From NCBI GenBank assembly GCA_050946195.1, contig JBMNUI010000003.1:1-61228 (forward strand): 61,228 nucleotides of DNA, read 5' to 3'. The notes under the pieces were generated by a model. That model saw nothing but the letters and a program-made list of their open reading frames with translations. It had not been told where the DNA came from and made no database searches. The position numbers and the translations under genes were made by a program. Below are positions 5,242 to 58,625 of the stretch, in pieces; positions within the stretch are counted from its first letter, which is position 1; each line of letters opens with the position of its first letter. The stretch is from Eubacteriales bacterium (GTDB taxonomy: Bacteria; Bacillota; Clostridia; Oscillospirales; CAG-272).

Positions 5242-5251
5242 CACAATGAAT

Positions 5252-5287
5252 CAGCCGCCGGCGGGATGTAAAACCCGCCGGCGGCTG
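5252..5287. terminator. GC-rich hairpin between convergent prfB and the acyl-CoA ligase gene
   Basis: CAGCCGCCGGCGGG-atgtaaaa-CCCGCCGGCGGCTG. No clear U-tract on either side. Confidence 0.45.
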
Positions 5288-5317
5288 AACAGTCAGCTTC
5301 GGTTTCAGCTATTCAAA

Positions 5318-5366
5318 GGCTTTGAAAGTTTTTGAAGGGGGCCGGGGGATACTTTTTCCCCCGGCG
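5318..5366 (+). repeat. Intergenic repeat family, copy A (internally deleted)
   Basis: GGCTTTGAAAGTTTTTGAAG followed by the GC hairpin GGGGCCGGGGG...CCCCCGG. Matches the 5' and 3' modules of copies B-E and lacks the middle hairpin. Confidence 0.55.
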
Positions 5367-5373
5367 TTCCTTT

Positions 5374-7011
5374 TCATTCAAGCTCAATCTGCGTAGCGAC
5401 AATTCTCTTGCCGCAGTATTTTTCGCGCAGTCTGGGCTTTTCTATTTTCCCGGTCGGGTTGCGCGGAATCTTATCAAAGATTATCTTTCTCGGGCGCTTG
5501 TATCTCGGCAGTCTGAGGCAGAACTTGTTCAGCTCGGCTTCTGTAAGACTGCACCCCGGCTTTGCCTCGACAATTGCCGCGGCAATCTCGCCCAGCCTGT
5601 GGTCGGGCAGCCCGATTACCGCCACATCCTTGACGGCGTCATGCCTGCGGATGTAGTTTTCGATTTCAACCGGGTAGATATTCTCGCCCCCCGTGATAAT
5701 GACGTCTTTCTTGCGGTCGACAAGGAATATAAAGCCGTCCTCGTCCTCGAAGGCCATGTCCCCGGTCAGCAGCCAGCCGTCCTTCAGCACCTCGTCGGTG
5801 GCGGCCTGATTCTTGTAGTAGCAGACCATGACCCCCGGGCCCTTCACGCAGAGCTCGCCGATTTCCCCCCGCGGCAGGGTGTTGCCGTTGCTGTCGATGA
5901 TTTTTGTCTCCCAGCCGTACCCGGCTTTGCCTATCGCACCGACCTTGTGGATGTTCTCGATTCCCAGATGTACGCAGCCCGGTCCGGTGGACTCCGAGAG
6001 GCCGTAATTCGTGTCGTAATCGTGGCTCGGGAAATGCCGCTTCCAGCGCTTTATAAGTGAAGGCGGCACCGGCTGGGCGCCGATGTGCATCAGGCGCCAC
6101 TGGGCGAGGGTGTAGTCCTCAAGATTTATCTGCCCGCTCTCGATGCTGTCGAGTATGTCCTGCGCCCAGGGTACAAGCAGCCAGACGATGGTGCACCTCT
6201 CCTCGGAAACCGTGCGGATAATCCACTCGGGCTTGACACCTTTGAGGAGCACCGTGCGCCCGCCGACAAGCAGGTTGCCGAACCAGTGCATTTTGGCGCC
6301 GGTATGGTAGAGCGGCGGGATGCATAGGAAAACATCCTCGTGTGTCTGGCCGTGGTGCGCCTGCTCTGTGAGGCAGGCATGCATCAGCGCCCGGTGGGTG
6401 TGAAGTATGGCCTTTGGGAATCCGGTTGTCCCTGAGGAAAAATATATCGCCGCCAAGTTGTCGTCCGAGAGCTTTATGTCGGGTGCGCGGGAGGTCGTGT
6501 AGGTGATGAGCTTGTTGTAGCTCTCGGCGAAGGTCGGGCAGTCGTCGCCGACATAAAAGCGGTATTTCACGCGCGTCAGGCAGTCGAAGATCTGCTCGAC
6601 TCGCCCGACAAACTCGGGACCGAAGACCAGTACGTCGACGTCGGCAAGTTCGGCGCAGTATTTGATTTCCTCGGCGGTATAGCGGAAGTTCATCGGCACG
6701 GCGAGCGCACCTGTCTTGAGAATCCCGAAATAGATAGGCAGCCACTCAAGGCAGTTCATGAGCAGAATTGCTACCTTGTCGCCTTTTTTTATTCCGCGCG
6801 AGAGCAAAAGATTTGCAAAGCGGTTTGCCCGCTGCTCAAATTCCCCCCAGGTAAGCTCGGTGCGGAAGGGGCGGTAGAAACTCGCTTCAATCAGCGAATA
6901 TTCCTTCCATGTCACCTGTTTTTCCTCGGGCAGCGCGGGGTTTATCTCGACAATCGCCACCTCATCGCGGTAGAGCGCAGCATTCTGCGCCAAGAGTTCG
7001 GTAATAGGCAT
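5374..7011 (-). CDS. AMP-forming acyl-CoA synthetase/ligase (class I adenylate-forming enzyme), substrate unknown
   Basis: Motifs YFSSGTTGFPKAI, TGDMAFEDEDGFIFLVDRKKDVIITGGENIYP, PRNPTGKIEK. RBS GGAAGGA. Only 19 nt after the symporter stop. Confidence 0.9.
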   Translation of the reverse strand: MPITELLAQNAALYRDEVAIVEINPALPEEKQVTWKEYSLIEASFYRPFRTELTWGEFEQRANRFANLLLSRGIKKGDKVAILLMNCLEWLPIYFGILKTGALAVPMNFRYTAEEIKYCAELADVDVLVFGPEFVGRVEQIFDCLTRVKYRFYVGDDCPTFAESYNKLITYTTSRAPDIKLSDDNLAAIYFSSGTTGFPKAILHTHRALMHACLTEQAHHGQTHEDVFLCIPPLYHTGAKMHWFGNLLVGGRTVLLKGVKPEWIIRTVSEERCTIVWLLVPWAQDILDSIESGQINLEDYTLAQWRLMHIGAQPVPPSLIKRWKRHFPSHDYDTNYGLSESTGPGCVHLGIENIHKVGAIGKAGYGWETKIIDSNGNTLPRGEIGELCVKGPGVMVCYYKNQAATDEVLKDGWLLTGDMAFEDEDGFIFLVDRKKDVIITGGENIYPVEIENYIRRHDAVKDVAVIGLPDHRLGEIAAAIVEAKPGCSLTEAELNKFCLRLPRYKRPRKIIFDKIPRNPTGKIEKPRLREKYCGKRIVATQIELE

Positions 7012-7030: not shown

Positions 7031-8581
7031 TTATGTGTTGATTTTTACAGCTTTTTCTTTACTCCCATATCCCGCAAAGGCCGACTCGACCACCGCCTTG
7101 TCGGGTGCCCTGGTCAGAAGGCTCACTATCGGCACGATTAAGAGGCCGGCAAGCATGGCAAACACGCCGCAGTTAATGGGAGACCTGAGCAGGGCCGGGA
7201 AATGGTTCCTGAAAAGCATGTTCAGCACCATAATACCGACCGCAAACCCGAAGGATGCCCATGCGGCGGCCTTGGTTGTACGCTTCCAGTAGAGGCAGTA
7301 GAGGAAGGGTGCCAGAAACGCGCCGGCGAGCGCTCCCCAGGAAATTCCCATGAGCTGAGCTATGTACTCGTAATTATACTTATACTGAAGAATGGCTATT
7401 GCGGCCGACAACGAAATGAAGACGACTATCAGCAGGCGCATGATGCCTATCTGCTGCCGCTCGCTCATGCGCTTTATCAGGTTGCCCCTGATAAGGTCGA
7501 TGGTCACGGTCGAGCTCGAGGCCATTACAAGAGACGAGAGGGTCGACATCGAGGCAGAGAGCACAAGAATCACCACAACGCCGATAAGCACCGGGCTGAA
7601 GTTGCTGAGCATTGTCGGAACAATCGAATCGAATCCTGAGACCGGGTTGCCGTCGGGACCGACCTCGATATCAAACAGGCGCCCGAAGCCGCCGAGGAAA
7701 TAGCAGCCGCCGGCAACAAAAAGGGCAAATACAGTCGAGATGACCGCCCCTCTTTTTATGGCGCCCTCATCCCTTATCGAGTAGAATTTGTTGACCATCT
7801 GGGGCAGCCCCCAGGTGCCGAGCGAGGTCAGAAGGACGACAAAAAGCAGCGTTTTGGGATCGGGCCCGAATACCGACGCAAAGGCCCCAGGCCCGGCGCC
7901 TTCGACAGAGATTTCAGACATCTTTGAGACCGCCTCGACAAGCCCTCCTTGGGACTTGAGCACCGCAGAAACAACCGCGATAATGCCCCCCAGCATGATT
8001 GTTGCCTGTATCGAATCGTTGATAACCTGCGCCATATACCCGCCGAGCACCACATACACGCAGGTGAGGGCCGACATGAGGATAATGCACCAGACATAGT
8101 CGATGCCGAAGGCCATGCCGAACAGGCGTGACAGGCCGTTGTAAAGCGAGGCGGAATAGGGAATCAGGAAAATAAATACTATTATCGACGCCCCGATTTT
8201 AAGGCCTTTGCTCGCAAGACGCTTGCCGAAAAATTCGGGCATCGTTCTTGAGTCAAGCAGCTGGGTCATAATGCGGGTCCTGCGGCCGAGGATCATCCAG
8301 GCAAGCAGCGAGCCGATAATGGCGTTTCCGATCCCAATCCAGACCGCAGATAGTCCGAATCTCCACCCGAACTGTCCGGCATAACCCACAAAGATAACCG
8401 CCGAAAAATAGGTCGTACCGTATGACAGAGCGGTAAGCCAGGGGCCGACCGCTCGCCCGCCCAGCACAAAACTGTTGACATTAACCGAATGGCGGCGGCA
8501 ACGTACGCCGACATAGACCATGACGGCAAAGAACACCACCACCATCGAGATTTTGACAAGCATTGCAAGTTGGTCTGACAT
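7031..8581 (-). CDS. Sodium:solute symporter (SSS family) permease
   Basis: ORF 7031..8668. Multi-TM protein with the SSS-like motif GGRAVGPWLTALSYGTTYFSAVIFVGYAGQFG. Start set at the ATG at 8581 (MSDQLAM), preceded by GAAAGGAAGGA. The longer ORF would run into the T-box terminator. Confidence 0.85.
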   Translation of the reverse strand: MSDQLAMLVKISMVVVFFAVMVYVGVRCRRHSVNVNSFVLGGRAVGPWLTALSYGTTYFSAVIFVGYAGQFGWRFGLSAVWIGIGNAIIGSLLAWMILGRRTRIMTQLLDSRTMPEFFGKRLASKGLKIGASIIVFIFLIPYSASLYNGLSRLFGMAFGIDYVWCIILMSALTCVYVVLGGYMAQVINDSIQATIMLGGIIAVVSAVLKSQGGLVEAVSKMSEISVEGAGPGAFASVFGPDPKTLLFVVLLTSLGTWGLPQMVNKFYSIRDEGAIKRGAVISTVFALFVAGGCYFLGGFGRLFDIEVGPDGNPVSGFDSIVPTMLSNFSPVLIGVVVILVLSASMSTLSSLVMASSSTVTIDLIRGNLIKRMSERQQIGIMRLLIVVFISLSAAIAILQYKYNYEYIAQLMGISWGALAGAFLAPFLYCLYWKRTTKAAAWASFGFAVGIMVLNMLFRNHFPALLRSPINCGVFAMLAGLLIVPIVSLLTRAPDKAVVESAFAGYGSKEKAVKINT

Positions 8582-8599
8582 CGCTATCCTTCCTTTCAG

Positions 8600-8932
8600 G
8601 CTTTGGCGTCGGAGGACCATAAAAAAAGTCCTCCGTATCGCTTGATACAGAGGACGACACAAAAGCAAAGTGCCGTGTTACCACCTCAATTCGCTGCAGT
8701 CTCGCGGCTGCAACCTCGCCGGGTACGTGAACCACAGTTCATTATACCCCTCCGCGCTAACGGGCGGTCCCGTCGCACCCTACTGATACCCCGGGGCTCT
8801 GCCCGGGTACTTTCAGGCCGCTGCTCTCGGGATGTATTCAGTCAGCCTGTCCCTGCCGCCTCGCACCACCCGGCGGCTCTCTGCCCCGGACCAGGGCTGA
8901 CTTACTTCTTCCCGGTCATCGCATTTAATTTG
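8600..8932 (-). promoter_or_regulatory. T-box riboswitch leader, specifier UAC (Tyr)
   Basis: Minus strand reads TGCGATGA (GA/K-turn), AGTA box, CAGAGAG (AG bulge) and GGTGGTGCGA (distal loop). Specifier loop is TGAA-TAC-A, with the codon at 8836..8834. T-box sequence is AATTGAGGTGGTAACACGG (8691..8673), followed by a terminator. Confidence 0.85.
8621..8655 (-). terminator. T-box attenuator terminator
   Basis: Minus strand reads GTCCTCTGTATC-AAGC-GATACGGAGGAC (12 bp including one G-U) followed by TTTTTTT, about 40 nt before the symporter ATG. Confidence 0.85.
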
Positions 8933-9128: not shown

Positions 9129-9205
9129 GGGCCATTAGCTCAGTTGGTCAGAGCTACCGGCTCATAACCGGTTGGTCCGGGGTTCGAGTCCCTGATGGCC
9201 CACCA
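9129..9205 (+). tRNA. tRNA with CAT anticodon, probably tRNA-Ile2 (lysidine type) rather than elongator or initiator Met
   Basis: Cloverleaf GGGCCAT/ATGGCCC acceptor, anticodon arm ACCGG-CTCATAA-CCGGT, TTCGAGT T-loop, encoded CCA. The GGCTCATAACC anticodon arm, TGGTC variable loop and G1-C72 pair resemble tRNA-Ile(CAU) as I recall it. The initiator C1:A72 mismatch is absent. Confidence 0.9.
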
Positions 9206-9314: not shown

Positions 9315-10736
9315 TTAATTTCTATTCTGCCGCGACTTCAGCGCTTCAAGCTGCCCGAATGCGCCGACAAGGCAATCGTACAGTTCCCTACGATTTACAA
9401 GCAGCATAATCAGCATGAACCCCGTACCATAAGCCCACCAGAGCGGGACGGCGGCCACCGTCACGGCACAGATTCCTGCAAGCAGCAATGCGTTGACCGA
9501 AAGTTTCAGATAATTCACTTCAAACCGGATATATTTCTGAACCGTCACTGCGCGGATTACAAACACCAAAGTATAGCTGATAAGCGTCGCTATCGCCGCG
9601 CCCTGTGCGCCCCAGAGCGGGATCAGCATAGCGTTGAGTACAAGATTTGCGAGCGCGCCGGTCATTGAGGTCAGGAAGGACATCTGGGTTTTTTTCTTAA
9701 CCATATAAACGCTTCCCATGAACATGGTCAGCGCCGAGGCGACCGCCGCCGCGGTCAGCACCGGGATGTATACCCATGAGTCGGCATAGCTTGACGCAAA
9801 CAGCAGCCTGACAAACACGCGGCAGAAGAGCACAATTCCCGCGCCTGCAAGGAACATCAGCCCCGAATAATAACCGAAAACCCTGCCGAAAAATTCGGAC
9901 TGCGCCTTCTCCTCCGCATCCCTGACCGCCGAAAACTGCCATGCCTCATAAAAGACCATGCAGACGAGCGTCAGCAGGGTCGGGATTTTGTAAGCGGCGG
10001 CATAAAGCCCGCTGATACTGTCGCCGCAGAGCCAGGTCACAAAATAGCGGTCGGACACGTTGGTAATCCACCAGAAAATCGTGGTGGGTATCATCGGCAG
10101 GCTGTAGCGCAGCAGCTCGCGCATGAGCCCGCGGTCAAGTCTACCCCGGGCAAGGTCGCGGTACAGCCCGGCGTATACCAGCAGCATAACCCCGACTATG
10201 AAGTCTGCGACCACCACCGAGAACACGAATCCGACAACTCCCATGTCAAAAAGGAGTAGGAACAAGAGATTGAAGCCGATGACCAGCGCGGTGTTGATTA
10301 TCCCCTGCACCGCAAAGAGCTTCGGGCGGTCATTGGCACGAACATACTGGGCGCAGACCGAGTGGAAATTCGACGCGAGTACGTATAAAATTATCAGCCA
10401 GACATAACCGGTAAAATAGTCAACCAGAAAAAGCAGCGGCGACAGAATCAGAAACCCCGCCGACGCGGCGGCCAGTACCCCGACCCCGGTTCTCAGTACC
10501 GTCGGCTTGTCGGCCCTTGAGTCGATCGCAAAGCGGAACACCCCGTCGGTGACCCCGAGGCAGGCCAGCGGGATGAGCAGGTTTGCGGTCTGCGAGATGA
10601 GCTCGGCGGTGTTGTATTGCTCCGGCAAAAGACAAGCAGTATACAGCGGCATGAGCAAAAGTACCAGGGCCTTCGACGCGAAGGTCCCGATGCCGAGTAT
10701 TATTGTGTCCGACATCAGCTTGCGGTATTGGTTCAT
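9315..10736 (-). CDS. Polysaccharide/oligosaccharide flippase (MOP superfamily, Wzx/SpoVB-like)
   Basis: ORF 9315..10754, about 14 predicted TM segments. N-terminus MNQYRKLMSDTIILGIGTFASKALVLLLMPLYT is typical of polysaccharide biosynthesis proteins. Start placed at the ATG at 10736. Confidence 0.8.
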   Translation of the reverse strand: MNQYRKLMSDTIILGIGTFASKALVLLLMPLYTACLLPEQYNTAELISQTANLLIPLACLGVTDGVFRFAIDSRADKPTVLRTGVGVLAAASAGFLILSPLLFLVDYFTGYVWLIILYVLASNFHSVCAQYVRANDRPKLFAVQGIINTALVIGFNLLFLLLFDMGVVGFVFSVVVADFIVGVMLLVYAGLYRDLARGRLDRGLMRELLRYSLPMIPTTIFWWITNVSDRYFVTWLCGDSISGLYAAAYKIPTLLTLVCMVFYEAWQFSAVRDAEEKAQSEFFGRVFGYYSGLMFLAGAGIVLFCRVFVRLLFASSYADSWVYIPVLTAAAVASALTMFMGSVYMVKKKTQMSFLTSMTGALANLVLNAMLIPLWGAQGAAIATLISYTLVFVIRAVTVQKYIRFEVNYLKLSVNALLLAGICAVTVAAVPLWWAYGTGFMLIMLLVNRRELYDCLVGAFGQLEALKSRQNRN

Positions 10737-10775
10737 GCAACTTCCCGAGGGCACTGCCCGGCCCCTGCTAATTTT

Positions 10776-10858
10776 CCCCGGGGACTCTACCCCCGGACCC
10801 CCGCCAAAGGAACTATTTTGAAAAAAGTTCCTTTGGAATCTTCAAAAAACTTTCAAAC
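10776..10858 (-). repeat. Intergenic repeat family, copy B
   Basis: Minus strand reads GTTTGAAAGTTTTTTGAAGATTCCAAAGGAAC-TTTTTTCAAAATA-GTTCCTTTGGCGGGGGTCCGGGGGTAGAGTCCCCGGGG. Lies in the 5' region of the flippase gene. Confidence 0.75.
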
Positions 10859-11195: not shown

Positions 11196-11396
11196 TCAAC
11201 CTTGATTATCCTCGTTGGAGTTGTCTTCTCCGCCCGGGCCGTCCCGGCGCTCGCGGTTATCGTTTTCATACCTCAGCCCTGTTGACACCCATTGGTTGTT
11301 TGTCGCGCTCTTTTTGTTCTTCCCGGGGTCATTTTCCGGGGGTTTTTTGTCTGTGCCCGGCGGGATGAAATTAATAGATTTGAAGTCCTTCCCCAT
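11196..11396 (-). CDS. Hypothetical small hydrophilic protein (66 aa; low-complexity, K/N/D/E/G/P-rich)
   Basis: ORF from the track, with an AGGAAA-type RBS about 9 nt upstream. No recognisable domain. An 8-bp GC hairpin (11140..11169) lies downstream. Confidence 0.3.
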   Translation of the reverse strand: MGKDFKSINFIPPGTDKKPPENDPGKNKKSATNNQWVSTGLRYENDNRERRDGPGGEDNSNEDNQG

Positions 11397-11552
11397 TTTC
11401 TTTATTTCCTTTCCGGCCTTCGGGCCTTTTTCATTAGTATATCCATGTTAAATATTAAATATCTGTGGGATTGTATCCGAAAAATGTTGACAAAGCTCGG
11501 TGTATACTATAATATTTAATCAAGTCAATTTAAATTCAGAAGGGATATAAAT

Positions 11553-11763
11553 ATGTCTGACAAATCAAGGCTTGTGGCCGCGCTGCTTTGCTTTTTCTTC
11601 GGAGCCCTCGGAATACACAGGTTTTATGTGGGAAAAATCGGAACAGGCATACTCTTGGCTGCTGACCGGAGGGGTTTTAGGATTCGGTGCGCTGATTGAC
11701 TTTATTGTAATACTATGCGGATACTTCAAGGATAAAGAGGGAGCATACTTAAAGAGGTGGTGA
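11553..11763 (+). pseudogene. TM2-domain protein gene interrupted by a 1-nt frameshift
   Basis: ATG at 11553 gives MSDKSRLVAALLCFFFGALGIHRFYVGKIGTGIL, then goes out of frame to a stop at 11697..11699. The +1 frame (track ORF 11572..11763) continues WLLTGGVLGFGALIDFIVILCGYFKD. Removing one T at 11655/11656 restores a ~69-aa TM2 protein. Confidence 0.75.
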
Positions 11764-11847
11764 ATACAGCCCATCCGGACCGGGACGGGCTTTTTCTTTG
11801 TTCACATATTACTTAGTTCATCAGTTAAAAATTAAAAAAAACGGGTT

Positions 11848-11962
11848 ATTGATATTTTAAACTCATACTGATATATACTGCAAATCATATCAAAAAGAAG
11901 CCGGACTTCTGAATGTGCAGTAACTATGACCGGAAAGGCGCAGCGCCACGCTGCGCCTTTTT
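11848..11962 (+). ncRNA. Candidate small RNA (orphan promoter plus terminator, about 80-nt transcript)
   Basis: TTGATA (11848), a 17-nt spacer, TATATA (11871). The terminator is GGCGCAGCG-CCA-CGCTGCGCC plus TTTTT (11937..11962). No RBS-preceded ORF lies between them. Confidence 0.3.
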
Positions 11963-12023
11963 AATGTTCTTCTGTAGAGCTTGCCAGCCCAGCACGCCCC
12001 GCTCTACTTTACTTGTGATGTGG

Positions 12024-12105
12024 GTTTGAAAGTTTTTTTGAGGATTCTCAAGAAACATTTTTACAAAAAGTTCCTTGAGCGGGGACTCGGGGGCAGAGCG
12101 CCCCC
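12024..12105 (+). repeat. Intergenic repeat family, copy C (reference copy)
   Basis: GTTTGAAAGTTTTTTTGAGGATTCTCAAGAAAC-ATTTTTACAAAAA-GTTCCTTGAGCGGGGACTCGGGGGCAGAGCGCCCCC. Confidence 0.8.
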
Positions 12106-12111
12106 TGAAAT

Positions 12112-12816
12112 TTAATCAAGAATTTCGCCTTCGGTTGAGAGGGTGACCACCTGCCAGGGGATGAATTTGCCGCTCCGGCGAAGGGCAGCTTTTGCGGCCT
12201 CCTCGATACCACCGCAGCAGGGCACTTCCATCCGCACGATGGTAAGGCTCTTTATATTGTTGTTTTTTAGGATCTCGGTCAGCTTTTCGGAGTAGTCCAC
12301 CATATCGAGTTTCGGGCAGCCGATTATGGTTATTCTGTTGCGCATGAAGTCGGAATGGAAGCTCCCGTGGGCATAGGCCGCGCAGTCGGCGGCAATGAGC
12401 AGGTTCGCACCGTCAAAATACGGAGCGTTGACCGGCACCAGTTTTATCTGCACCGGCCACTGTGCCAGCATGCTGGGGCGGGGCGCTGTCTCGTGCGGTT
12501 CTTTGTCGGGCTGATTTCTTATTATCTGCCTTGACCGCGTCCCGGGGCAGCCGCAGGGCAGGGTGTTGTCTGCCTTTTTGCTCTGCTTGTTTGCAAGAAC
12601 GGCGGCTTCGTCGAAGGGTACCGCTTCGCGCTCGACAATGCTGATAGCGTCGGTCGGGCAGGCCGGCAGGCAGTTGCCCAGCCCGTCGCAGTAATCGTCG
12701 CGGAGCAGCTTGGCTTTGCCGTCCACAAGGCCGATTGCCCCCTCGTGGCAGGCCGTAACACAGGCACCGCAGCCGTTGCACTTCTCCTCGTCGATCTGAA
12801 TTATCTTTCTTTTCAT
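12112..12816 (-). CDS. 4Fe-4S dicluster ferredoxin-domain protein with a C-terminal Cys-containing domain
   Basis: Cluster motifs CNGCGACVTAC and CDGLGNCLPACP. C-terminal VRMEVPCCGGIEEA. Divergent from a Crp/Fnr regulator gene. Confidence 0.8.
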   Translation of the reverse strand: MKRKIIQIDEEKCNGCGACVTACHEGAIGLVDGKAKLLRDDYCDGLGNCLPACPTDAISIVEREAVPFDEAAVLANKQSKKADNTLPCGCPGTRSRQIIRNQPDKEPHETAPRPSMLAQWPVQIKLVPVNAPYFDGANLLIAADCAAYAHGSFHSDFMRNRITIIGCPKLDMVDYSEKLTEILKNNNIKSLTIVRMEVPCCGGIEEAAKAALRRSGKFIPWQVVTLSTEGEILD

Positions 12817-18980: not shown

Positions 18981-19433
18981 GTGACGGTACCGGAGGTCGT
19001 TTTGAAAAACTGCAAGAGATTCACCGAGGGGTTAGGGTATTTTGTTTGCTTTCTCATATTGCTTTTTATTTTATATTCATACTTTACGTTCGGAGACCCT
19101 GTTGTCGATGAGGAGACCGGCGAGGTTCAGACCGTTCTTACCAGTGTGAGGGGCTTTCGCGAGTACCTGGTGCTTTTCGGGATTTTTCTGGTCAGCTCGG
19201 TTTTCTGCTCGGCGACAGACCGGCTGCCCTTTGTCGGCATTGTCGTCTCGGCGGTCCCGGTTTACTATGTTGTGAGGCTTTATTATGACAAAAAGCTTGT
19301 GTACATGCCTATGATAATCATGCTGCTCGCACTCTTTTTCTTTGCGGGGGAGATTATTGCAACTATTCAATGGGCATCTGAAAAACTAAAAGCAACCCGC
19401 GGTAATTCTCGCATAAGTCAATCTAAAGACTAA
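18981..19433 (+). CDS. Hypothetical membrane protein
   Basis: 150-aa ORF with 4 hydrophobic segments. Start uncertain. Confidence 0.5.
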   Translation: MTVPEVVLKNCKRFTEGLGYFVCFLILLFILYSYFTFGDPVVDEETGEVQTVLTSVRGFREYLVLFGIFLVSSVFCSATDRLPFVGIVVSAVPVYYVVRLYYDKKLVYMPMIIMLLALFFFAGEIIATIQWASEKLKATRGNSRISQSKD

Positions 19434-19482: not shown

Positions 19483-19557
19483 GTTTGAAGTTTTTGAGGA
19501 TTCTCAAGACCCTGTTTTCAAAAAGGGTCCTGAGCGGGATTTGGAGGCGGAGCCCCC
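19483..19557 (+). repeat. Intergenic repeat family, copy D
   Basis: GTTTGAAGTTTTTGAGGATTCTCAAGACCC-TGTTTTCAAAAA-GGGTCCTGAGCGGGATTTGGAGGCGGAGCCCCC. Confidence 0.75.
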
Positions 19558-19569
19558 ACACAAATCCCG

Positions 19570-19613
19570 AAAATAAAAACATAACGGCAGGCCGCGCTGC
19601 GCGGCCCGCCGTT
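19570..19613 (-). terminator. Rho-independent terminator of abrB
   Basis: Minus strand reads AACGGCGGGCCGCG-CA-GCGCGGCCTGCCGTT followed by ATGTTTTTATTTT. Confidence 0.75.
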
Positions 19614-19641
19614 ATATTTTGGGAATTGCCGAAATAGAATA

Positions 19642-19887
19642 TTAGAGCATAGTCTTCAGCTTTTCGAGGCACTCGGTGCAAATGCGCTTGCCGTTGAAGA
19701 ATATGACCTGATCGGCATTTCCACAGAAGATACACGCAGGCAGATATTTCGACAGAATAATTCTGTCACCGTCGGTGAATATTTCTACCGAATCCTTCGG
19801 ATTGATGTCGAAGGTTGTGCGTATTTCCTTCGGCAGAACTATCCGCCCCAGTTCATCCACCGGACGTACCATTCCTGTAGATTTCAT
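19642..19887 (-). CDS. abrB: AbrB-family transition-state regulator (SpoVT-AbrB domain plus C-terminal CxxC...CxxC)
   Basis: MKSTGMVRPVDELGRIVLPKEIR matches the AbrB N-terminal domain. C-terminal CIFCGN...CTEC. RBS AAAGGAG. Confidence 0.9.
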   Translation of the reverse strand: MKSTGMVRPVDELGRIVLPKEIRTTFDINPKDSVEIFTDGDRIILSKYLPACIFCGNADQVIFFNGKRICTECLEKLKTML

Positions 19888-20089
19888 TGGCTTTTACAAC
19901 TCCTTTCATAGAGCACAATAATCCCCTACGGGACAGCTCCGTGGTATTTATGCCATTATTATACACCATCTTTTAAGGTTTGTCAATACCATATAATGGT
20001 TATTTTTGTTGGTTTGTGACTTATTTTTTTAAGAAATGTCACAATACCGTAGATTATGTCGAATACTGTTATATCGGGAGGATAAAAAA

Positions 20090-32130: not shown

Positions 32131-32976
32131 TTATACATTCCCCACGATAACCGTGTCAAGGTATTCCCCTGCCACCGCGGCAAGGCGGTAGAGGAGCGAG
32201 ACATCGGTCGGGTTGCTGCCGGCCATTTTGCGGCGGGGAAAAAAGCGCGTGATATGCAGGGGTATTTTGCGGTCGACCGACGCCACCCATTCAGAGAGCT
32301 CCCGCATTCCGTCGAGCGAGTCGTTTCCGCCGGGGACAATCAGGGTAGTCAGCTCGACATGCGAGCACTTTGCGGCAGCCCTGATGAAATCAAGCACGAT
32401 GTCGAGGTCCCCGCCAAGCCTCCTATACCATTCGTGCGTGAACCCCTTGAGGTCGATATTGAAGGCGTCGATATAGGGCAGTAGCTGCTCAAGGTACGGC
32501 AGGGTGATTGAGCCGTTGGTGACCACCACGTTTTTCATGCCCCGCCGCCGCACCTCGGCAGCCGTATCTCGCACATATTCCCAGCCCACCAGCGGCTCGT
32601 TGTAGGTGTATGCGACGCCGATATTCCGGTATTTGCGCTGTGCCTCGGCAAGAGAGGCGAGCAGGTCGGGCGGGTAATATTCCCACCCCACCGACTGGTC
32701 GACGGCACAGGAAATTTGGTAGTTCTGACAGAAGGGGCAGTCGAGGTTGCACCCGAAACTGCCCACAGATAAAACATATGTGCCGGGATAAAACCTTGCG
32801 AGCGGCTTTTTTTCTATCGGGTCAAGAGCTATTGAGGTGATTTTGCCGTAATTTATGCAGACACTCGCCCCGCCCTCGTTTCTGCGCGCGCGACAAAACC
32901 CGGTCTGCCCCTCGCGCAGGCGGCAGTGCCTGAAGCACACCTCGCAGGTGATAGTGCCAAGGCTCTCGTCAGACAT
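32131..32976 (-). CDS. AmmeMemoRadiSam system radical SAM enzyme
   Basis: ORF 32131..33021. N-terminal CEVCFRHCRLREGQTGFC and radical SAM motif CNLDCPFCQN. Start placed at the ATG at 32976, giving an ATGTCTGA overlap with the upstream stop. Confidence 0.85.
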   Translation of the reverse strand: MSDESLGTITCEVCFRHCRLREGQTGFCRARRNEGGASVCINYGKITSIALDPIEKKPLARFYPGTYVLSVGSFGCNLDCPFCQNYQISCAVDQSVGWEYYPPDLLASLAEAQRKYRNIGVAYTYNEPLVGWEYVRDTAAEVRRRGMKNVVVTNGSITLPYLEQLLPYIDAFNIDLKGFTHEWYRRLGGDLDIVLDFIRAAAKCSHVELTTLIVPGGNDSLDGMRELSEWVASVDRKIPLHITRFFPRRKMAGSNPTDVSLLYRLAAVAGEYLDTVIVGNV

Positions 32977-34357
32977 GCCGCACAACCTCAAAGCGCTGCA
33001 GGCGGATTTTATCTCGCTCACTGGGGAATATCCCGGCTTTTTTCATTGCAATAGATATCTGCTCCTCGACCGTGTCGACTCCTTCAAGGTCGGGAAGAAG
33101 CAGCCCGCGGCGGTAGCCGCAGGATACTATGACGCCGTAGCGCCTGACGTCAAGCTCGTCGGGCGAGGATATATCTTCGGGCTTACCGAGCACGTCGACG
33201 CTGTATTCGAGCAGCGGGAGTTCGTCCTCGCGCACCGGCAGAAAGCGGGGGTCGCGTAAGCAGGAGCTGATGCCGTTCTGTATGATTTCGTGGGCGATGC
33301 TCGGTGTGGTAGGCTCTGTCGTGCCGATACAACCGCGCAGCCGGCCATAGAGGTGCAGGGTCACAAACACGCCGGCCCGGTTTTTTGTCATCTCCCCGGG
33401 CAGGTCGGCCGGGGGCGATATCTTTTTGCCGGTCTTAACATATGTTTCGACGGTCAGGCGTGCGAGGTGCACATACGGGTCCTCCTTGTCGGCGAGGGGT
33501 CTTTGAGGCCGCAGCGCGTCGAGATACCGGCGTCCGGGGTCGGGGTCGCCCGGCTCAAATGTAGAGATGCCGTAGCCCACGCCGAAGGGCCCCTCGTATG
33601 ACAGCCTTTTGGCTCTGACCGCAACCCCGTCGAAGCAGCCGGCCATCATTGCAAATGAACGGTGGCCGCACTCGCCGGCAGCCTGACAGAAGGATTCGCT
33701 CATTTTGAGCAGGCTGCTAAAATCACCCTCGCCCATAATGTCCATTATCTGTCTGTCGTACTGCGGGCCTTCCTTCCGGTATCCGTACGGCCCGCTGCGG
33801 GTGAGATAATGCGACAGGTCGCCGCTGGCGACAACCGAGGCCCGGCGGCCGAGTTTTTCTGCTGCCTCTTTTATCATCATTCCAAGGCTGTAGTGCTCGG
33901 CAAACGAAAGCCCCGATATGCCAATCCGCACGACCGGCGGGAGCTTTGCGCCGCCATAGGCATTTCCGAGGAAATAAAGCGGCACCAGCGCCCCGTGGTC
34001 AATCTCGGGGCTCCGCTCGCCCTCCGTGCCGGCCGGAAAACTCCTGCTGCGGGCAAGACCGGAAAGCTCGCGTACAAACTCCTCATCGTAGTCAACCGAT
34101 ATCGAGGTGGCATCGCCAAAGGCCGCAAAGCTGCCCCGGCCGCCTGTCCCCGGCGAGATGTGGAACCAGTCAGCGTACATTGCGCTGTGCGGCGAGATAA
34201 TGACAATGGTGTCGGGGCGGGATTTCGCGACAAAGCCGGCGGCCTCATTGTATGCATCTGTGGTCGCCTGAATTTTCTTCTCCTCCCCGCGCCCGATGCC
34301 GGGTATAATTATCGGCGGATGAGGAACCATGATTGCATTAATTATACTCACCAACAA
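32969..34357 (-). CDS. Fusion of a LigB/Memo-type (class III extradiol dioxygenase-like) domain and an AMMECR1 domain
   Basis: N-terminal MVPHPPIIIPG...IVIISPHS...SGDLSHYL (LigB/Memo fold family). C-terminal AGVFVTLHLYGRLRGCIGT...RGLLLPDL (AMMECR1). Start ambiguous (TTG 34357, GTG 34351 or ATG 34330). Confidence 0.85.
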   Translation of the reverse strand: MLVSIINAIMVPHPPIIIPGIGRGEEKKIQATTDAYNEAAGFVAKSRPDTIVIISPHSAMYADWFHISPGTGGRGSFAAFGDATSISVDYDEEFVRELSGLARSRSFPAGTEGERSPEIDHGALVPLYFLGNAYGGAKLPPVVRIGISGLSFAEHYSLGMMIKEAAEKLGRRASVVASGDLSHYLTRSGPYGYRKEGPQYDRQIMDIMGEGDFSSLLKMSESFCQAAGECGHRSFAMMAGCFDGVAVRAKRLSYEGPFGVGYGISTFEPGDPDPGRRYLDALRPQRPLADKEDPYVHLARLTVETYVKTGKKISPPADLPGEMTKNRAGVFVTLHLYGRLRGCIGTTEPTTPSIAHEIIQNGISSCLRDPRFLPVREDELPLLEYSVDVLGKPEDISSPDELDVRRYGVIVSCGYRRGLLLPDLEGVDTVEEQISIAMKKAGIFPSERDKIRLQRFEVVRHV

Positions 34358-34369
34358 TCACCTCTTTAT

Positions 34370-34445
34370 GGGGGCGCTGCCCCCAAACCCCTGCTCAAGG
34401 AACTTTTTTGAAAAAAATTCCGAATCCTCAAAAACTTTTTTCACC
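34370..34445 (-). repeat. Intergenic repeat family, copy E
   Basis: Minus strand reads GGTGAAAAAAGTTTTTGAGGATTCGGAAT-TTTTTTCAAAAAA-GTTCCTTGAGCAGGGGTTTGGGGGCAGCGCCCCC. Confidence 0.75.
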
Positions 34446-34468
34446 GGTTGCCATATTAGGTGTGGCAG

Positions 34469-35314
34469 CTATCTTAGTATCTCGCGTTCAATGATGTCGG
34501 CGACACCGCACTCTTTACAGGTGTATCTGGTCACATTTTTTGCCTTTGACTTCTGCGCGGCTTCGCTGCCGAGCAGCGCATAGCCACATCCGGCGTTCTC
34601 AATCATCAAAAAATCGTTCCACATATCGCCAAAGGCATAGATATCCTCATTCGGTATGCCGTAAAACCTTGCTATCCGCTCAATCGCATACCATTTGTCA
34701 GCTCCGGCCGAGCAGAGGCTCATGCGGATGTGGCTTACATCCTCGGTTGCCGGCATGAAATCCCATGAGGCGGCTATCACCTCGTCCGGTCCGGCAGCCG
34801 TAGCTACGGCCTCAATCGCCCGCACCGCCTCATTGTCGGGAGGCATTATGATTATTCTTGAGGCCGGCGTATCGGGGATATTGCTCTTGTCGAAAATTGT
34901 CGCCGGCTCTGAGGTCCTTATCCTCTCCCTGTAATATTTCCCGTGATGCCCCTCGGTATACCACAGGGCATTTTTATGTTCGACATACATGGGTATGTGG
35001 CACCTGTACTCGAAGGCGGCTTCGATTATGCGCCTTGTCATCTTGGGGCTGATGCTGCATTCCGAGGGGGCGAAGGTCTCGTCATACGGGTGGAACACAT
35101 GGGCGCCGTTGAGGGCGCAGACCGGGGAATCAAGTCCCATTGCCTCATAAACCCACCGCATCATGTTGAAATGCCTTGCCGAGGCTATCACCGGGATATG
35201 CCCCTGCTCGCGCGCCATGCGAAAGGCCTTAACGGTCCGCTCGTCAATTTCGTCAACCTTGGGCAGCACGGTGCAGTCAAGGTCGAAGGCTATAAGATAT
35301 CTTTTTTGTTGCAC
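34469..35314 (-). CDS. Cof-type HAD-IIB family hydrolase
   Basis: ORF 34469..35449. Motifs IAFDLDCT and FGDMWND. Preferred start is the GTG at 35314, 8 nt after AAAGAGG. An alternative ATG at 35365 forms a TAATG overlap with the upstream stop. Confidence 0.8.
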   Translation of the reverse strand: MQQKRYLIAFDLDCTVLPKVDEIDERTVKAFRMAREQGHIPVIASARHFNMMRWVYEAMGLDSPVCALNGAHVFHPYDETFAPSECSISPKMTRRIIEAAFEYRCHIPMYVEHKNALWYTEGHHGKYYRERIRTSEPATIFDKSNIPDTPASRIIIMPPDNEAVRAIEAVATAAGPDEVIAASWDFMPATEDVSHIRMSLCSAGADKWYAIERIARFYGIPNEDIYAFGDMWNDFLMIENAGCGYALLGSEAAQKSKAKNVTRYTCKECGVADIIEREILR

Positions 35315-35364
35315 GAAAGCAGCCTCTTTTTCCTGATGGTTGTTCACTCTTCCACCCGGGCGCA

Positions 35365-36624
35365 TTATATTATTGCTCCTGGGGATATCAGGGTTTCCCG
35401 CAGCTCGGTAATGTTTATCTTGCCGACCGGGAGGTTGTTTTTGGAGCATATGGCCGTCGCCGTGCCCGCGGCCTGCCCGAGAGCCATGCAGGTAGCCTGA
35501 ACCCGGATCGAGGCGATTGCCTCTCTCGTCGCCGAAATCGTCCTCCCCGCGACCAGAAGGTTCTCAGAGCCCTTCGGTATTAGCGTACGGTACGGGATAT
35601 TGTAGCCCTCGTCCACCCTCCTTAAGTCCTGTTCCCGGCTGTCGGGCTTGTGTATGTCAATCGGGTGCCCGCCCTTGGCAATCGTGTCGGGAAAGTCCTT
35701 CGGGCTGAGTATGTCGTCGGCGGTCATTTCATACAGCCCGTCAATCCTGCGCGTCTCGCGTATACCCACCTGGGTGCCGGTATCGATTATATAGCAGTTT
35801 CTGAACTCCTCGAAATTCTCCCGAAGAAGCGCAACCAGCCTGAATACATCCTCGCGCAGCCGGCACTCGGCCTCGGTAAGGCTGAGCACGTCGGTCCCGT
35901 CGCCGGCAAAGCGCGACATATTGACCGAGGCCTCCCCCCGCCGCAGGGTTGTAAGCATCCAAGGGCCGCCGAACTTCGGCACCTCCCCGCCCAGCGAGAG
36001 AAGCTTCTCGCGAATGCGCGTGTTGACATGCCGCCTGCCGCTCTCGCGCATCTCCATGTTCTCAAGCCGGTCGGTATCCACCCCGCCGAGCCTGAACCAA
36101 AGCGTCATGGGCTGCAGCTCTTTGCGCTCGTCGCCTATTCTGAAGGGGAAGCCCGCATACTTCACCAGATCGGCGTCGCCGGTGCAGTCGATAAAATACC
36201 CTGCCTCAAGTGTCTGGCGCCCGCTTTTGTTCTCAAGCGTAATGCTTGTTACCCTGCCGCCTTCCCTTTTGCAGCCGGTTATATATGAATGGAGCAGCAG
36301 CGTCGCCCCCGAGCCGAGGACCATCCTCTGGGCAACGAGCTTATAAATCTCGGGGTCAAAGTGGATATTTCCGCTGGGAAAGCTGGTGTCGGCACCCCCC
36401 AGCCTCTCCATTTCTTCGGCAAATTCAAGCGGTATGCCGGCAATAATCCTTTTGCCCTTCTTGTTAAAGACGCTGATAGGGCTGACCAGAGAGAGGGTGG
36501 CCATTCCCCCGAGAAAGCCGTATTTCTCAATCAGTATGGTTTTGGCCCCGTTTCGTGCCGCGGCCACCGCCGCAATTATTCCGGCCGGTCCTCCGCCGCA
36601 GACCGCAACATCATATTTCGCCAC
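35365..36624 (-). CDS. FAD-dependent oxidoreductase (FAD_oxidored family)
   Basis: YDVAVCGGGPAGIIAAVAAARNG dinucleotide-binding motif. 419 aa. Confidence 0.82.
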   Translation of the reverse strand: MAKYDVAVCGGGPAGIIAAVAAARNGAKTILIEKYGFLGGMATLSLVSPISVFNKKGKRIIAGIPLEFAEEMERLGGADTSFPSGNIHFDPEIYKLVAQRMVLGSGATLLLHSYITGCKREGGRVTSITLENKSGRQTLEAGYFIDCTGDADLVKYAGFPFRIGDERKELQPMTLWFRLGGVDTDRLENMEMRESGRRHVNTRIREKLLSLGGEVPKFGGPWMLTTLRRGEASVNMSRFAGDGTDVLSLTEAECRLREDVFRLVALLRENFEEFRNCYIIDTGTQVGIRETRRIDGLYEMTADDILSPKDFPDTIAKGGHPIDIHKPDSREQDLRRVDEGYNIPYRTLIPKGSENLLVAGRTISATREAIASIRVQATCMALGQAAGTATAICSKNNLPVGKINITELRETLISPGAII

Positions 36625-37242: not shown

Positions 37243-37331
37243 GGAGGAATAGCGAAGTGGTCATAACGCGGCGGTCTTGAAAACCGTTTGAGAGCAATCT
37301 CACGGGGGTTCGAATCCCTCTTCCTCCGCCA
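37243..37331 (+). tRNA. tRNA-Ser (TGA anticodon)
   Basis: GGAGGAA/TTCCTCC acceptor, anticodon loop CT-TGA-AA, long variable arm TGAGAGCAATCTCACG, GGTTCGAATCC T-loop, encoded CCA. Confidence 0.93.
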
Positions 37332-55484: not shown

Positions 55485-55730
55485 CTACAGCATGGATTTC
55501 AAATTCCTTAAACATTCGTCGCAAATACGTTTTTCCATGAAGCATGCGATGTTTTCTGTGCTGCCGCAGAACACGCACGGGGGCACATACTTCTGCAGGA
55601 TGATTTTGTCATCCTCGGTGTATATGCACATAGTGTCATTCGGGTTTATGTTGTAAGCTTTGCGAAGCTTTTTTGGCAAAACAAACCTGCCGAGGTCGTC
55701 GACCTGACGGACCTTTACCGTTGTTTTCAT
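55485..55730 (-). CDS. AbrB-family regulator paralog (81 aa, C-terminal CxxC...CxxC)
   Basis: ORF 55485..55835. ATG at 55730 after CAGGAGA. MKTTVKVRQVDDLGRFVLPKKLR...CVFCGS...CDEC. Same length as the 19642 copy and roughly half-identical by eye. Confidence 0.85.
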   Translation of the reverse strand: MKTTVKVRQVDDLGRFVLPKKLRKAYNINPNDTMCIYTEDDKIILQKYVPPCVFCGSTENIACFMEKRICDECLRNLKSML

Positions 55731-55871
55731 TTTATTTCTCCTGTAAAAAAAGCGAAATGAAAGTTTATGAAAAAGCGAACAAGAAACCTCACACCCGCTA
55801 TTACCGCGAGCGCTTCCAAAAATATACAATATCATTAGCCAGTGGTCATGTCACAACTGGCCTAAATCGCC

Positions 55872-56303
55872 TCAATACTGAACCACAGGCTGGCAGGTAA
55901 TGACATCGGCCGGTCCGCCGCTGCCATAAACCTCATAGACTGAGGTTACCCTATATGTACCTCTTGAATCGAGCTGAACAGTATGGCCGCCTATATAAGT
56001 GAAATCAAAAACGTAGTCGACCCATTCGTTACCGGATACTCCAATGTCTACTCTGGTCCAGAAGAAAAGCAAAATTCTCTTTTCTACATATGTTGTTATA
56101 ACCGCGCATGTCGTGACGCCCTGAAAACCAATAAACCTGTTGGAAACCGTCAATAATCCTGTGTCTGATATACTTGCTACTGCATCGGCATATAGAGTAT
56201 TATTGAAACAAACAGAATAATCTGCTGCCGATAATAACACGGCAAGAAGCGAAGACATCAGAATTGCGGTAAGAAGAAAAGCAACAATCCTTGTTTTTCG
56301 CAT
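55872..56303 (-). CDS. Hypothetical exported or membrane-anchored protein
   Basis: ORF 55872..56324. N-terminal MRKTRIVAFLLTAILMSSLLAVLLSA signal or anchor. Start at 56303 or 56324. Confidence 0.6.
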   Translation of the reverse strand: MRKTRIVAFLLTAILMSSLLAVLLSAADYSVCFNNTLYADAVASISDTGLLTVSNRFIGFQGVTTCAVITTYVEKRILLFFWTRVDIGVSGNEWVDYVFDFTYIGGHTVQLDSRGTYRVTSVYEVYGSGGPADVITCQPVVQY

Positions 56304-56339
56304 TTTTTCGTCCCTTTCTTTCATTTTTTGGGGCCCTCA

Positions 56340-56388
56340 TATATACAACAAAATAAAATGGCAAAAAGGATACAATAATTAAAATTTT
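56340..56388 (-). promoter_or_regulatory. Promoter-like motif, copy 1 (upstream of the exported-protein gene)
   Basis: Minus strand reads TTGTATCCTTTTTGCCATTTTATTTTGTTGTATATA. About 40 of 48 positions match the copy upstream of the sigma gene. Confidence 0.5.
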
Positions 56389-57049: not shown

Positions 57050-57053
57050 GACA

Positions 57054-57602: not shown

Positions 57603-57634
57603 GATACTCCCCTGCTTATGTTCTATTCGCCCTT

Positions 57635-57683
57635 TATATACAACAAAATTAAAGGGCAAATAGGATACATGAAATTAAATTTT
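57635..57683 (-). promoter_or_regulatory. Promoter-like motif, copy 2 (upstream of the sigma/anti-sigma operon)
   Basis: Minus strand reads ATGTATCCTATTTGCCCTTTAATTTTGTTGTATATA, about 30 nt before the sigma factor ATG. Confidence 0.5.
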
Positions 57684-58140
57684 GCAATATTCTCCGGGTA
57701 TTACCATGCAAATTATAACACAATAAAACAGTTAATTCAATAAAATAATACAAGTAATTGCTAAATATGACAAACCAAAAATAATATCCGGAATTATTGC
57801 AGCAGATCTCTGCTATTTTACCTACAAAAGGTAGACATGTAAGCCGGATTTGCGCCGCGCCGGTCCGGTGAGTCTGTCGAGCTCGGGTTTTATTAATAGC
57901 AAAACCACCCCGGACGGGGTGGTTTTAATTATCGTTTTTGTCGTGTGTGATGTACATTGCGCTAATACAATGCACGGATTTATCCGGGGTCTGTGCATTT
58001 CATTATGGCTGAAATCGGCACATTTTTTCAATCTTTTCACTTTATTATCAAAATACCGCTTGACTTTTTTTGCCTGTTTGATGATAATGTCTGTCCTGAG
58101 GGGGTGGAACTATGACCAAAGAACAGGCAGAAGCAGAAAA

Positions 58141-58620: not shown

Positions 58621-58625
58621 GATAA

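Follow-up and report, generated by a model that had tools for sequence, protein, structure and literature searches.

The window analysed here, a 61,228-nt stretch of DNA from a Eubacteriales bacterium, contains a short palindromic repeat at five places between genes. Pfam names for the neighbouring genes are RF2, AMP-binding enzyme, polysaccharide flippase, 4Fe-4S protein, HAD hydrolase and LigB/AMMECR1 fusion. Copy A lies 8 nt past the stop codon of the AMP-binding gene (5374-7011, minus strand) and before a hairpin at 5251-5288. Copy B is situated in the 5′ leader of the polysaccharide-flippase gene (9315-10754, minus strand), and a promoter scan identified a promoter-like TTGATT-17-TATAAT arrangement upstream of it (10914-10886). 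Copy C is found 6 nt past the stop codon of the 4Fe-4S gene (12112-12816, minus strand), after a plus-strand terminator at 11932-11962. Copy D lies between the stop codon of a plus-strand gene (18981-19433) and a shared terminator (19577-19619); it is faced by an AbrB/MazE-like gene of 81 amino acids (19642-19887, minus strand), which was found via the gene calls of relatives. Copy E is intercistronic, between the HAD hydrolase gene (34469-35449, minus strand) and the LigB/AMMECR1 gene (32969-34357, minus strand), and the ribosome-binding site of the latter is located ~10 nt downstream of the copy. Convergent gene pairs flank copies A, C and D. All five copies lie outside called genes, and the strictly intergenic placement proposed in a first-pass annotation of this DNA is thereby confirmed. 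Unrelated mobile-element remnants are present at the right end of the window.

Four of the copies are full-length or nearly so, and are built from a linear head (module 1), an AT-rich palindrome (module 2) and a GC-rich hairpin (module 3). Copy B (10776..10858, minus strand) consists of module 1 at 10837-10858, a perfect palindrome (CCAAAGGAAC..GTTCCTTTGG) at 10804-10836 and the GC hairpin at 10776-10803. In copy C (12024..12105, plus strand), the corresponding parts are located at 12024-12046, 12047-12079 and 12080-12105, and the palindrome has one A.C mismatch. Copy D (19483..19574, plus strand, with the unit proper extending to 19557) has module 1 at 19483-19502, a palindrome with one A.C mismatch (CTCAAGACCC..GGGTCCTGAG) at 19503-19534 and the GC hairpin at 19535-19557, followed by a tail (ACACAAATCCCGAAAAT, 19558-19574) that resembles the end, ACAAACCCAAATTTGAA, of the doublets described below. 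Copy E (about 34370..34445, minus strand) is complete except for 4 nt of its 5′ arm, with module 1 at 34422-34444, a palindrome remnant at 34394-34421 and the GC hairpin at 34370-34393. Copy A (5320..5366, plus strand) is an A-type variant, in which the AT-rich palindrome is absent and the GC hairpin comes straight after the head; both parts were read from the sequence, the head as CTTTGAAAGTTTTTGAAGG (5320-5338) and the hairpin as GCCGGGGGA-TACTTTT-TCCCCCGGC (5341-5365). The exact 20-mer of copy A occurs once in the window. Copy A also aligns with the A-type halves of inverted doublets at five loci in other genomes (L041, L077, L094, L103 and L133).

The whole window was searched, with filters off, using a covariance model derived from 74 members of the family, which scored copies B, C, D and E at 77.2, 72.3, 77.0 and 63.5 bits, respectively (E-values of 1e-16 to 2e-13), and the head and GC hairpin of copy A at 12.5 bits (E-value 0.74). 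This search revealed no full copy in the window beyond B, C, D and E, and its other matches were the reverse-strand shadows of the palindromes at these same four copies. A degenerate pattern, comprising module 1 and the 3′ arm of module 2, likewise matches exactly copies B, C, D and E in the window, and the same pattern matched none of 100 dinucleotide shuffles. The window therefore contains four full copies and one variant in 61 kb.

The first-pass annotation had described five repeat places sharing three modules. Each of the five does hold a T-rich head together with an inverted repeat or GC hairpin, copy A only as a variant, and the three-module description applies to copies B, C, D and E and fails for copy A, which has no AT-rich palindrome. 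A head is present as claimed, but the literal module 1 string, when allowed up to three mismatches, matches copy D alone; it is too rigid because the lengths of the T-runs vary among copies. The middle stems quoted for copies B, C and D are correct, the first perfect and the other two interrupted by the single mismatches given above. Module 2, however, is not a hairpin around a TTTTTCAAAAA loop, since the T-run pairs with an A-run and TTTTTCAAAAA is therefore helix; module 2 is a palindrome of 28-34 nt with a centre of 1-3 nt, which is nearly always TC.

The copies in the window belong to a much larger family. A strict pattern, in which part of the 3′ arm is fixed, was applied to one genome per species and matched at least 108 loci from about 51 assemblies among the matches listed. 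The carrier assemblies are labelled Clostridia, Eubacteriales or Oscillospiraceae, the labels of metagenome-assembled genomes (MAGs) being coarse, and they derive from ruminant, deer, yak, human and mouse guts and from anaerobic digesters. Cultured carriers among the matches listed are Acutalibacter sp. 1XD8-33 and Oscillospiraceae bacterium 42-9. The organism of the window inhabits digesters and bioreactors, and the window is ~90% identical to MAG AS09scLD_304 over 7.6 kb. A hidden Markov model of the core found 158 distinct copies in 0.83 Mb of fetched DNA, and the genes flanking different copies are unrelated to each other. The units occupy 5′ leaders, intercistronic gaps and the stretches between stop codons and terminators, and are found there in both orientations.

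Throughout the family, the order of parts is a linear head (..GAAAGTTTTTGARGATTC), an AT-rich, perfect or nearly perfect palindrome of 13-17 bp and an exchangeable GC-rich hairpin, to which a tail or more hairpin modules are sometimes added. The head, the inner arm of the palindrome (..AAGGAAC/GTTCCTT..) and the TC centre are nearly invariant, whereas the outer arm positions covary. There are at least four kinds of 3′ module, namely GGGG..CCCC hairpins, which is the type carried by the window copies; TCGCCCTC-CGCA-GAGGGCGA followed by a multi-hairpin extension of ~130 nt; CAGAGCTCGAGAC..; and CCGCCGGAGGCGG. Tandem arrays occur in the family, as do head-to-head doublets of ~290 nt with inverted ends, each composed of an A-type and a B-type unit (JAZRIF and JAZRFR MAGs); the window has single units alone. 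Between species, the core is ~87-90% identical, compared with ~69% for the orthologous coding DNA of those genomes.

No match to a described family has emerged from the collections searched. In the window, the Rfam matches at gathering level are a T-box and two tRNAs, and none of them lies over a copy; at E-values up to 10 there is nothing credible over copies B or C, and at E-values up to 1 there is nothing over extended copies in five loci. A sub-threshold match to Gut-1 in one locus (L069) was set aside as part of another hairpin array. Plasmid and phage collections contained no match to the element, and 30 single matches of a first, looser pattern in viral contigs were attributed to chance. 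Literature searches by sequence and by keyword found no description of the family. The earlier statement that the element is not a named family is thus upheld on both counts, Rfam and literature. Its suggestion of a REP/MITE-like element also stands, the element being multi-copy, intergenic, hairpin-forming, modular and present in many genomes.

In an alignment of 74 copies, covariation was tested for the 15-bp palindrome and the inner 5 bp of the GC hairpin: 98.1% of the cells are paired, and changes on both sides were seen in 11 of the 20 pairs (110 cells). None of 500 shuffles equalled any measure of pairing or covariation, and slid controls paired at 30-71%. Because the scan pattern had fixed part of the 3′ arm, 35 copies outside this pattern were also inspected, and 33 of them carry palindromes of 13-18 bp with 0-2 mismatches and more than 12 different arm sequences between them. 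Palindromy is therefore maintained. In a related MAG (L084, ~90% nucleotide identity over 7.6 kb), the ortholog of copy C has a perfect stem, and the single mismatch in copy C is, judged from this comparison, a decay mutation.

The mismatches that do occur in the stems do not single out an RNA strand. Those compatible with G.U pairing number 11 on the forward strand and 10 on the reverse strand, and for the transcribed strand there are four mismatches of tolerated types against seven of types not tolerated, so there is no enrichment for G.U. A switch between module 1 and the 5′ arm, resembling a terminator/antiterminator arrangement, was considered and rejected, as this alternative helix is 83.1% paired compared with 82.7% in shuffles and has no covariation support. 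Folding z-scores are -2.9 to -3.9 for the reverse strands of copies B, C and D, and -3.6 and -4.6 for the two strands of copy A. The first-pass annotation had taken covariation of the middle stem as a sign of selection on structure. In the weak sense that palindromy is maintained, this is borne out; neither the mismatches nor the block change described next points to RNA, and covariation in a DNA palindrome does not, on its own, indicate a functional RNA.

Comparisons of orthologous sites reveal how the units change over time. Relatives whose neighbouring protein is 86% or 75% identical carry the element at the D site (orthologs in L204 and L207-L213). Where this identity falls to 66% and 62% (L214 and L217), the element is missing and the stop codon abuts the conserved terminator; these empty sites are too diverged to define junctions. 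No polymorphism within the species was detected, as every contig with an identical flanking protein carries copy D. The D-site stems in three lineages read TCAAGACCC, TTAAGGAAC and ATAAGAAAC, each matching its own 3′ arm, and four pairs differ simultaneously between the window and its nearest relative. The lineage with 75% identity retains an almost perfect palindrome beside a decayed module 1 and a reduced module 3. A metagenome scan with the LigB/AMMECR1 protein provided a sole informative ortholog of the E site (L139, neighbouring protein 91% identical), the other relatives lacking synteny. The GC hairpin and the ribosome-binding site are nearly unchanged there, and the palindrome is wholly different from that of the window (CTTAAGACCC..GGGTCTTAAG). 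DNA contigs of related digester strains, when placed on the window, gave no listed joint at a copy, the intergenic regions being too diverged.

Since the palindrome swaps as a block at the D and E sites, stepwise compensatory selection on an RNA is disfavoured. From the sequences compared, the change looks like either the replacement of a cassette or the templated correction of a quasi-palindrome. Templated correction of quasi-palindromes is a known mutational process.

The orientation of the copies was central to the earlier proposal, which held that the forward orientation matches a flanking gene in each case and that the element consequently acts in RNA. For copies A, C and D, such a match is automatically true, because convergent gene pairs offer both directions. 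Relative to the likeliest covering transcript, three of the window copies are sense and two antisense; the latter are A and C, which lie 6-8 nt past a minus-strand stop codon and beyond a plus-strand terminator. Across the family, 113 copies have both neighbours called, and they comprise 27 in sense orientation, 31 in antisense orientation, 30 between convergent and 25 between divergent genes, based on crude gene calls made in the fetched loci by a simple open reading frame (ORF) script. A first, cruder pass had given 30 versus 25, and the balance is alike in every subtype. These counts speak against an orientation bias, and the RNA role deduced from it is not supported.

Several copies are transcribed. 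The available RNA data are thin and consist of unstranded metatranscriptome contigs, possibly with some DNA. Copy B is joined to the flippase gene by two RNA contigs (10601-10850, X20; 10427-10826, X23) and copy C to the 3′ end of the 4Fe-4S gene by another (11969-12183, X14). Copy E is spanned, and both of its flanking genes joined, by contigs 33962-35200 (X23, 1423 nt) and 34201-34726 (X18, 526 nt). The units are carried inside mRNAs without stopping transcription. Inspection by eye showed no -10-like hexamer at the right spacing within the unit, and the promoter scan flagged nothing in the copies; a sigma-70 promoter inside the unit was accordingly rejected.

These observations bear directly on the idea that the copies are intrinsic or bidirectional terminators sharing sequence by chance. 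Their frequent position between convergent genes (three of five copies) is what such terminators would lead one to expect, and the GC hairpin of copy A, which is followed by GTTCCTTTTC, is flagged as terminator-like. This flag is unique to copy A, and copies B, C, D and E have no T-run after the unit on either strand and are unflagged. Copy E is read through in RNA contigs, copy B is joined by RNA to the gene in whose 5′ leader it lies, and copies A, C and D are each adjoined by a separate canonical terminator hairpin. Terminators sharing sequence by chance are thus an exceedingly improbable account of these repeats.

A dedicated cis-acting RNA element, such as a UTR stabiliser, an RNase processing site or an sRNA-like module that is selected to fold in the transcript, would be consistent with the location of copies in transcribed spacers, with the RNA contigs over copies B, C and E, with the stable predicted hairpins and covarying stems, and with the persistence of copies at orthologous sites over long divergence. 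Effects of REP elements on mRNA stability have also been reported (PMC3184786). Against this reading stand the random orientation of the family, with no subtype biased, the antisense position of copies A and C, and stem mismatches that favour neither strand, nor the transcribed one. Pairing between module 1 and the 5′ arm does not exceed that of shuffled controls, Rfam gives no match, the E locus has had its palindrome exchanged as a whole, and the RNA contigs are unstranded with possible DNA admixture. We consider such an element unlikely, and a dedicated RNA function is not supported. Because the copies are transcribed within mRNAs, they may act passively as RNA hairpins. Alternatively, the unit may be a host-domesticated DNA site, in which a conserved chromosomal protein (a single-copy RAYT-like enzyme, gyrase, a nucleoid protein or a recombinase) binds the head and a hairpin or cruciform, and the family serves chromosome-level functions. 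A near-invariant head and TC centre across the about 51 assemblies among the matches listed, combined with variable arms, would suit a protein-binding site, as would a core conserved above orthologous genes and an orientation independent of transcription. Precedents exist in the binding of IHF, DNA polymerase I and gyrase to BIMEs (PMC3184786), and RAYTs are described as typically domesticated single-copy transposases (PMC5581495). No candidate for the binding protein was found among 732 ORFs beside copies or the 30 window ORFs scanned, however, and more distant relatives are without copies at the corresponding sites. The decay of module 1 at the D site of one lineage, with its palindrome intact, is unexpected if the head is needed there. 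A domesticated DNA site is, on this evidence, quite unlikely.

A further alternative is that the single units are decayed halves of a cut-and-paste MITE, namely the ~290-nt doublet with ends TTCAAATTTGGGTTTGT...ACAAACCCAAATTTGAA, which would have been moved by the DDE transposase of a parent insertion sequence (IS) sharing these ends. Inverted-end doublets do exist in the JAZRIF and JAZRFR MAGs, their end motif has 31 occurrences within a subset of the loci, the tail of copy D resembles a doublet end and copy A is of the type that makes up the opposite half; the missing orientation bias could, moreover, be explained by a symmetric mobile unit. Yet the flanks of the doublets display no direct target duplication, and no parent IS was found near copies. 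The window has four B-type halves against one A-type half, and most sampled genomes carry single units with other 3′ modules. This origin is therefore very unlikely. Three other candidates were discarded. Differing arms among the copies of one genome ruled out a transcription-factor operator, and anatomy ruled out a CRISPR-like reading. The core sites R''/R' of integron attC elements read RYYYAAC / GTTRRRY, and in cassette arrays these elements all point the same way; an attC site was rejected on the arms (..AAGGAAC / GTTCCTT..), the spacing of copies (1-15 kb apart) and their mixed orientations.

The characteristics of the clostridial family can be compared with those of established repeats. 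REP, BIME and REPIN elements are high-copy, extragenic and transcribed, with hairpins that are compensated in both arms and an organisation as singles, clusters, mosaics or inverted doublets; REP-type elements often lie between convergent genes or inside operons and do not terminate transcription (PMC3184786). The clostridial units resemble these elements of Proteobacteria (E. coli, Pseudomonas, Stenotrophomonas) in their high copy number, extragenic and transcribed location and changes in both arms, in their arrangement as singles, clusters, mosaics of few module types and inverted doublets, in their frequent placement between convergent genes or within operons, and in the absence of termination. 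In structure they differ, since a REP is a single GC-rich palindrome of ~35 nt and the clostridial unit comprises ~80 nt, with an AT-rich hairpin, a GC-rich hairpin and a 20-nt head. The 5′ GT[AG]G tetranucleotide of REPs is absent from the clostridial head (..AAAGTTTTTGARGATTC; no GTAG or GTGG in 74 copies), and no cognate RAYT was found among the 30 window ORFs scanned, nor any recurrent family among the 732 ORFs near copies. In addition, REPs are species-specific and found in Proteobacteria, whereas the clostridial core is conserved across many species.

Among repeats of Gram-positive bacteria, the pneumococcal BOX (boxA-boxB-boxC), RUP and SPRITE elements and bcr1 of Bacillus cereus are, like the clostridial family, short, modular, transcribed, stably folding and intergenic. 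For BOX elements, mobilisation in trans is presumed (PMC3184786). Terminal inverted repeats and target duplications mark RUP and bcr1, and the clostridial single units are without these; as far as a comparison by description allows, the order of modules and the TC-centred, AT-rich perfect palindrome are specific to the clostridial family. Correia elements of Neisseria and the enterobacterial ERIC/RU sequences are similar to the ~290-nt doublets, being long imperfect palindromes with inverted ends that are co-transcribed. In contrast to these MITEs, no TA or other target duplication was seen, and single asymmetric units account for most copies and for every copy in the window.

The anatomy of the clostridial units is compatible with that of palindrome-associated elements derived from IS200/IS605, given that single units have no terminal inverted repeats, no visible target duplication, subterminal hairpins and a fixed polarity. 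In IS608, a short target/cleavage sequence lies directly 5′ of the element. The sequence ..AAAG is conserved immediately 5′ of the clostridial unit, where IS200/IS605 derivatives carry their target/cleavage site. Unlike these derivatives, however, the clostridial unit has two dissimilar hairpins, no TnpA was found near copies and there is no orientation bias; the last two points weigh against membership. The anatomy of the unit also bears a resemblance to HUH-type single-strand elements, with fixed polarity and a conserved sequence 5′ of the hairpin.

In its behaviour, the family has its nearest counterparts in REP/BIME/REPIN elements and in the modular BOX, SPRITE and bcr1 repeats of Firmicutes (PMC3184786). 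We have filed it outside every named family, because it has no GT[AG]G motif and, in single units, no inverted ends, and because no RAYT or target duplication could be shown. It is unusual in its combination of a unit with two hairpins and a head, an exchangeable palindrome, and a core that is conserved above coding DNA.

The surroundings of the copies gave few indications of how they have spread. Within the 8-kb loci, no recurrent transposase or other protein family was found among the 732 ORFs beside copies, and the only element-specific 'families' in this set are translations of the repeat itself. A Pfam scan of 30 window ORFs revealed no Y1/RAYT-type domain, no IS with the ends of the doublet was seen in the 8-kb loci around copies, and the doublet flanks carry no direct repeat. 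Single units have unlike ends, a linear head at one and a GC hairpin at the other, and thus no terminal inverted repeats.

Taking these lines of evidence together, we regard it as probable that the copies belong to a new family of non-coding, interspersed repeats in Clostridia (Oscillospiraceae and allies), modular and palindromic in build and similar in kind to REP/BIME elements or MITEs. Units of this family would spread, or may once have spread, as DNA via a trans-acting enzyme that reads the head and hairpin. Spread on the lagging strand, as for IS200/IS605-type elements, is disfavoured because the orientation bias expected in Firmicutes is missing; a symmetric doublet acting as the mobile unit, or recombination through the head and the GC module, may have served instead. 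Palindromy could then be kept by hairpin-dependent processes in the form of templated quasi-palindrome correction, and also by conversion between copies via the conserved head and GC module. After insertion, units would be passive passengers of mRNAs, folding into stable hairpins through which transcription continues, and would at most modulate the stability or processing of adjacent mRNA segments, as REP elements do. The conservation of the core above that of genes and the persistence of units at fixed sites would, as far as sequence comparison can tell, be as compatible with a host function as with continued activity.

Such a host function is spelled out in a reading that we put forward tentatively and consider rather unlikely. 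Instead of selfish DNA alone, the family would be a conserved genome-wide signal in Clostridia of the Oscillospirales type, in which a conserved protein reads the head and the TC-centred hairpin, either in single-stranded DNA or in RNA of either orientation, and the host uses the sites. If true, a host signal of this kind would explain why the core is conserved above orthologous genes across about 50 species, and why copies persist at fixed sites with intact palindromes; the uses made of it could be, for example, the processing or stabilising of mRNA, or the organisation of the chromosome.

A family of modular palindromic repeats, which we favour, has practical as well as biological consequences. 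These repeats fill many short spacers in abundant, mostly uncultured Clostridia of guts and digesters. Their palindromes break metagenome and metatranscriptome assemblies, and unitig breaks were observed at copies; they also generate spurious ORFs and spurious protein clusters. Because they covary, the repeats can be mistaken for regulatory RNAs, and a named family model would improve annotation. Finally, the family, with its conserved core, its exchangeable palindrome cassettes and two cultured carriers among the matches listed, would provide a Gram-positive counterpart to REP/BIME elements.

Recognition of an 81-aa AbrB/MazE-like gene (PF04014) on the minus strand at 19642-19887, which a 90-aa ORF filter easily misses, renders the context of the full-length repeat copy D (19483-19574, +) convergent. 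This gene is covered by two of the unstranded metatranscriptome contigs, possibly including some DNA, at 19629-19919 and 19712-19919, with a depth of up to 21. Near another full-length copy, C (12024-12105, +), sequence comparison with the related MAG AS09scLD_304 reveals a rearrangement breakpoint, involving window positions ~11380-11925 and positions 1-540 of the reverse-complemented locus L084. AS09scLD_304 carries a full membrane-transporter gene with the C-terminal end ..KEAGLLNVQ* before the terminator; in the window, the last ~38 nt (11886-11923) are the sole remainder of this gene. On the 5′ side of this remnant lie AT-rich DNA and a short ORF starting at ATG 11553, which the first-pass annotation had listed as a TM2 gene. 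The breakpoint is ~140 nt away from copy C, and the repeat is therefore not its obvious cause.

Rfam searches of the window also place a T-box leader at 8647-8928 (-; 102 bits, where the gathering threshold is 93), upstream of a 529-aa gene at 7031-8620 (-), as well as tRNA-Met (CAT) at 9129-9205 (+) and tRNA-Ser (TGA) at 37243-37331 (+). Depth over the tRNA-Met region is very high in all runs because this region is conserved. A direct repeat of 123 nt (44258-44380 and 44717-44839; 77% identity, 459 nt apart) sits within a 766-aa gene at 44084-46384 (-), and is probably an internal protein repeat. The right end of the window (55485-61102) is an AT-rich stretch that contains a second MazE-like gene (55485-55835), a DUF4367 protein (56387-56968) accompanying an ECF sigma factor (57054-57602), a serine-recombinase fragment (57919-58707), an IS3-type HTH_21 fragment (58764-59279) and an HNH endonuclease (60755-61102), with an AT-rich direct repeat of 49 nt at 56340, 57635 and 57710. 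This stretch looks like mobile-element remnants and has no relation to the repeat family.

Among loci fetched from other assemblies, ORF callers translate through the repeat in L091, L063 and related loci (e.g. ..ILKELFQKFLKRGPGAEP..), and spurious 'protein families' consequently cluster across genomes. The locus L069 contains more than 1 kb of non-coding DNA (100-1150) dense with hairpin repeats other than the family studied here, including about three repeats of a ~330-nt unit, and tandem GTTGCCTGCGGCAAAYGAT units that match Gut-1 RNA (RF01706) weakly, at 33.5 bits where the gathering threshold is 50 (E 0.006). The family also has clear members, at two to four per 8 kb, in assemblies with labels outside Clostridia, namely Desulfovibrionaceae (L062, on a 4.26 Mb contig) and Selenomonadaceae (L056), reflecting either mislabelled or mis-binned records or cross-phylum spread.

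Extended and tandem arrangements of the repeat have also been found. On the minus strand of L049 (~2450-2990), a 184-nt unit occurs three times in tandem, each unit combining one repeat copy with another conserved, GC-rich stretch (GGCAAACCCCGTGGGGCAGGGGCCCCACAATGGC..). In copies with a type ii 3′ module from several ruminant-gut MAGs (L046, L048, L053, L054, L063, L064, L067, L097, L138 and others), the head and palindrome lead into a chain of covarying GC hairpins, ~130 nt long and conserved, of which the final stem is terminator-like (..GGAAGGAGTAAAATCTCCCC..GGGAGATTTTTGCTCCTTCAC). A unit with the type iii module sometimes lies opposite this chain in inverted orientation. The chain had no match in an Rfam search, and could be a structured module in its own right or an sRNA-like unit.
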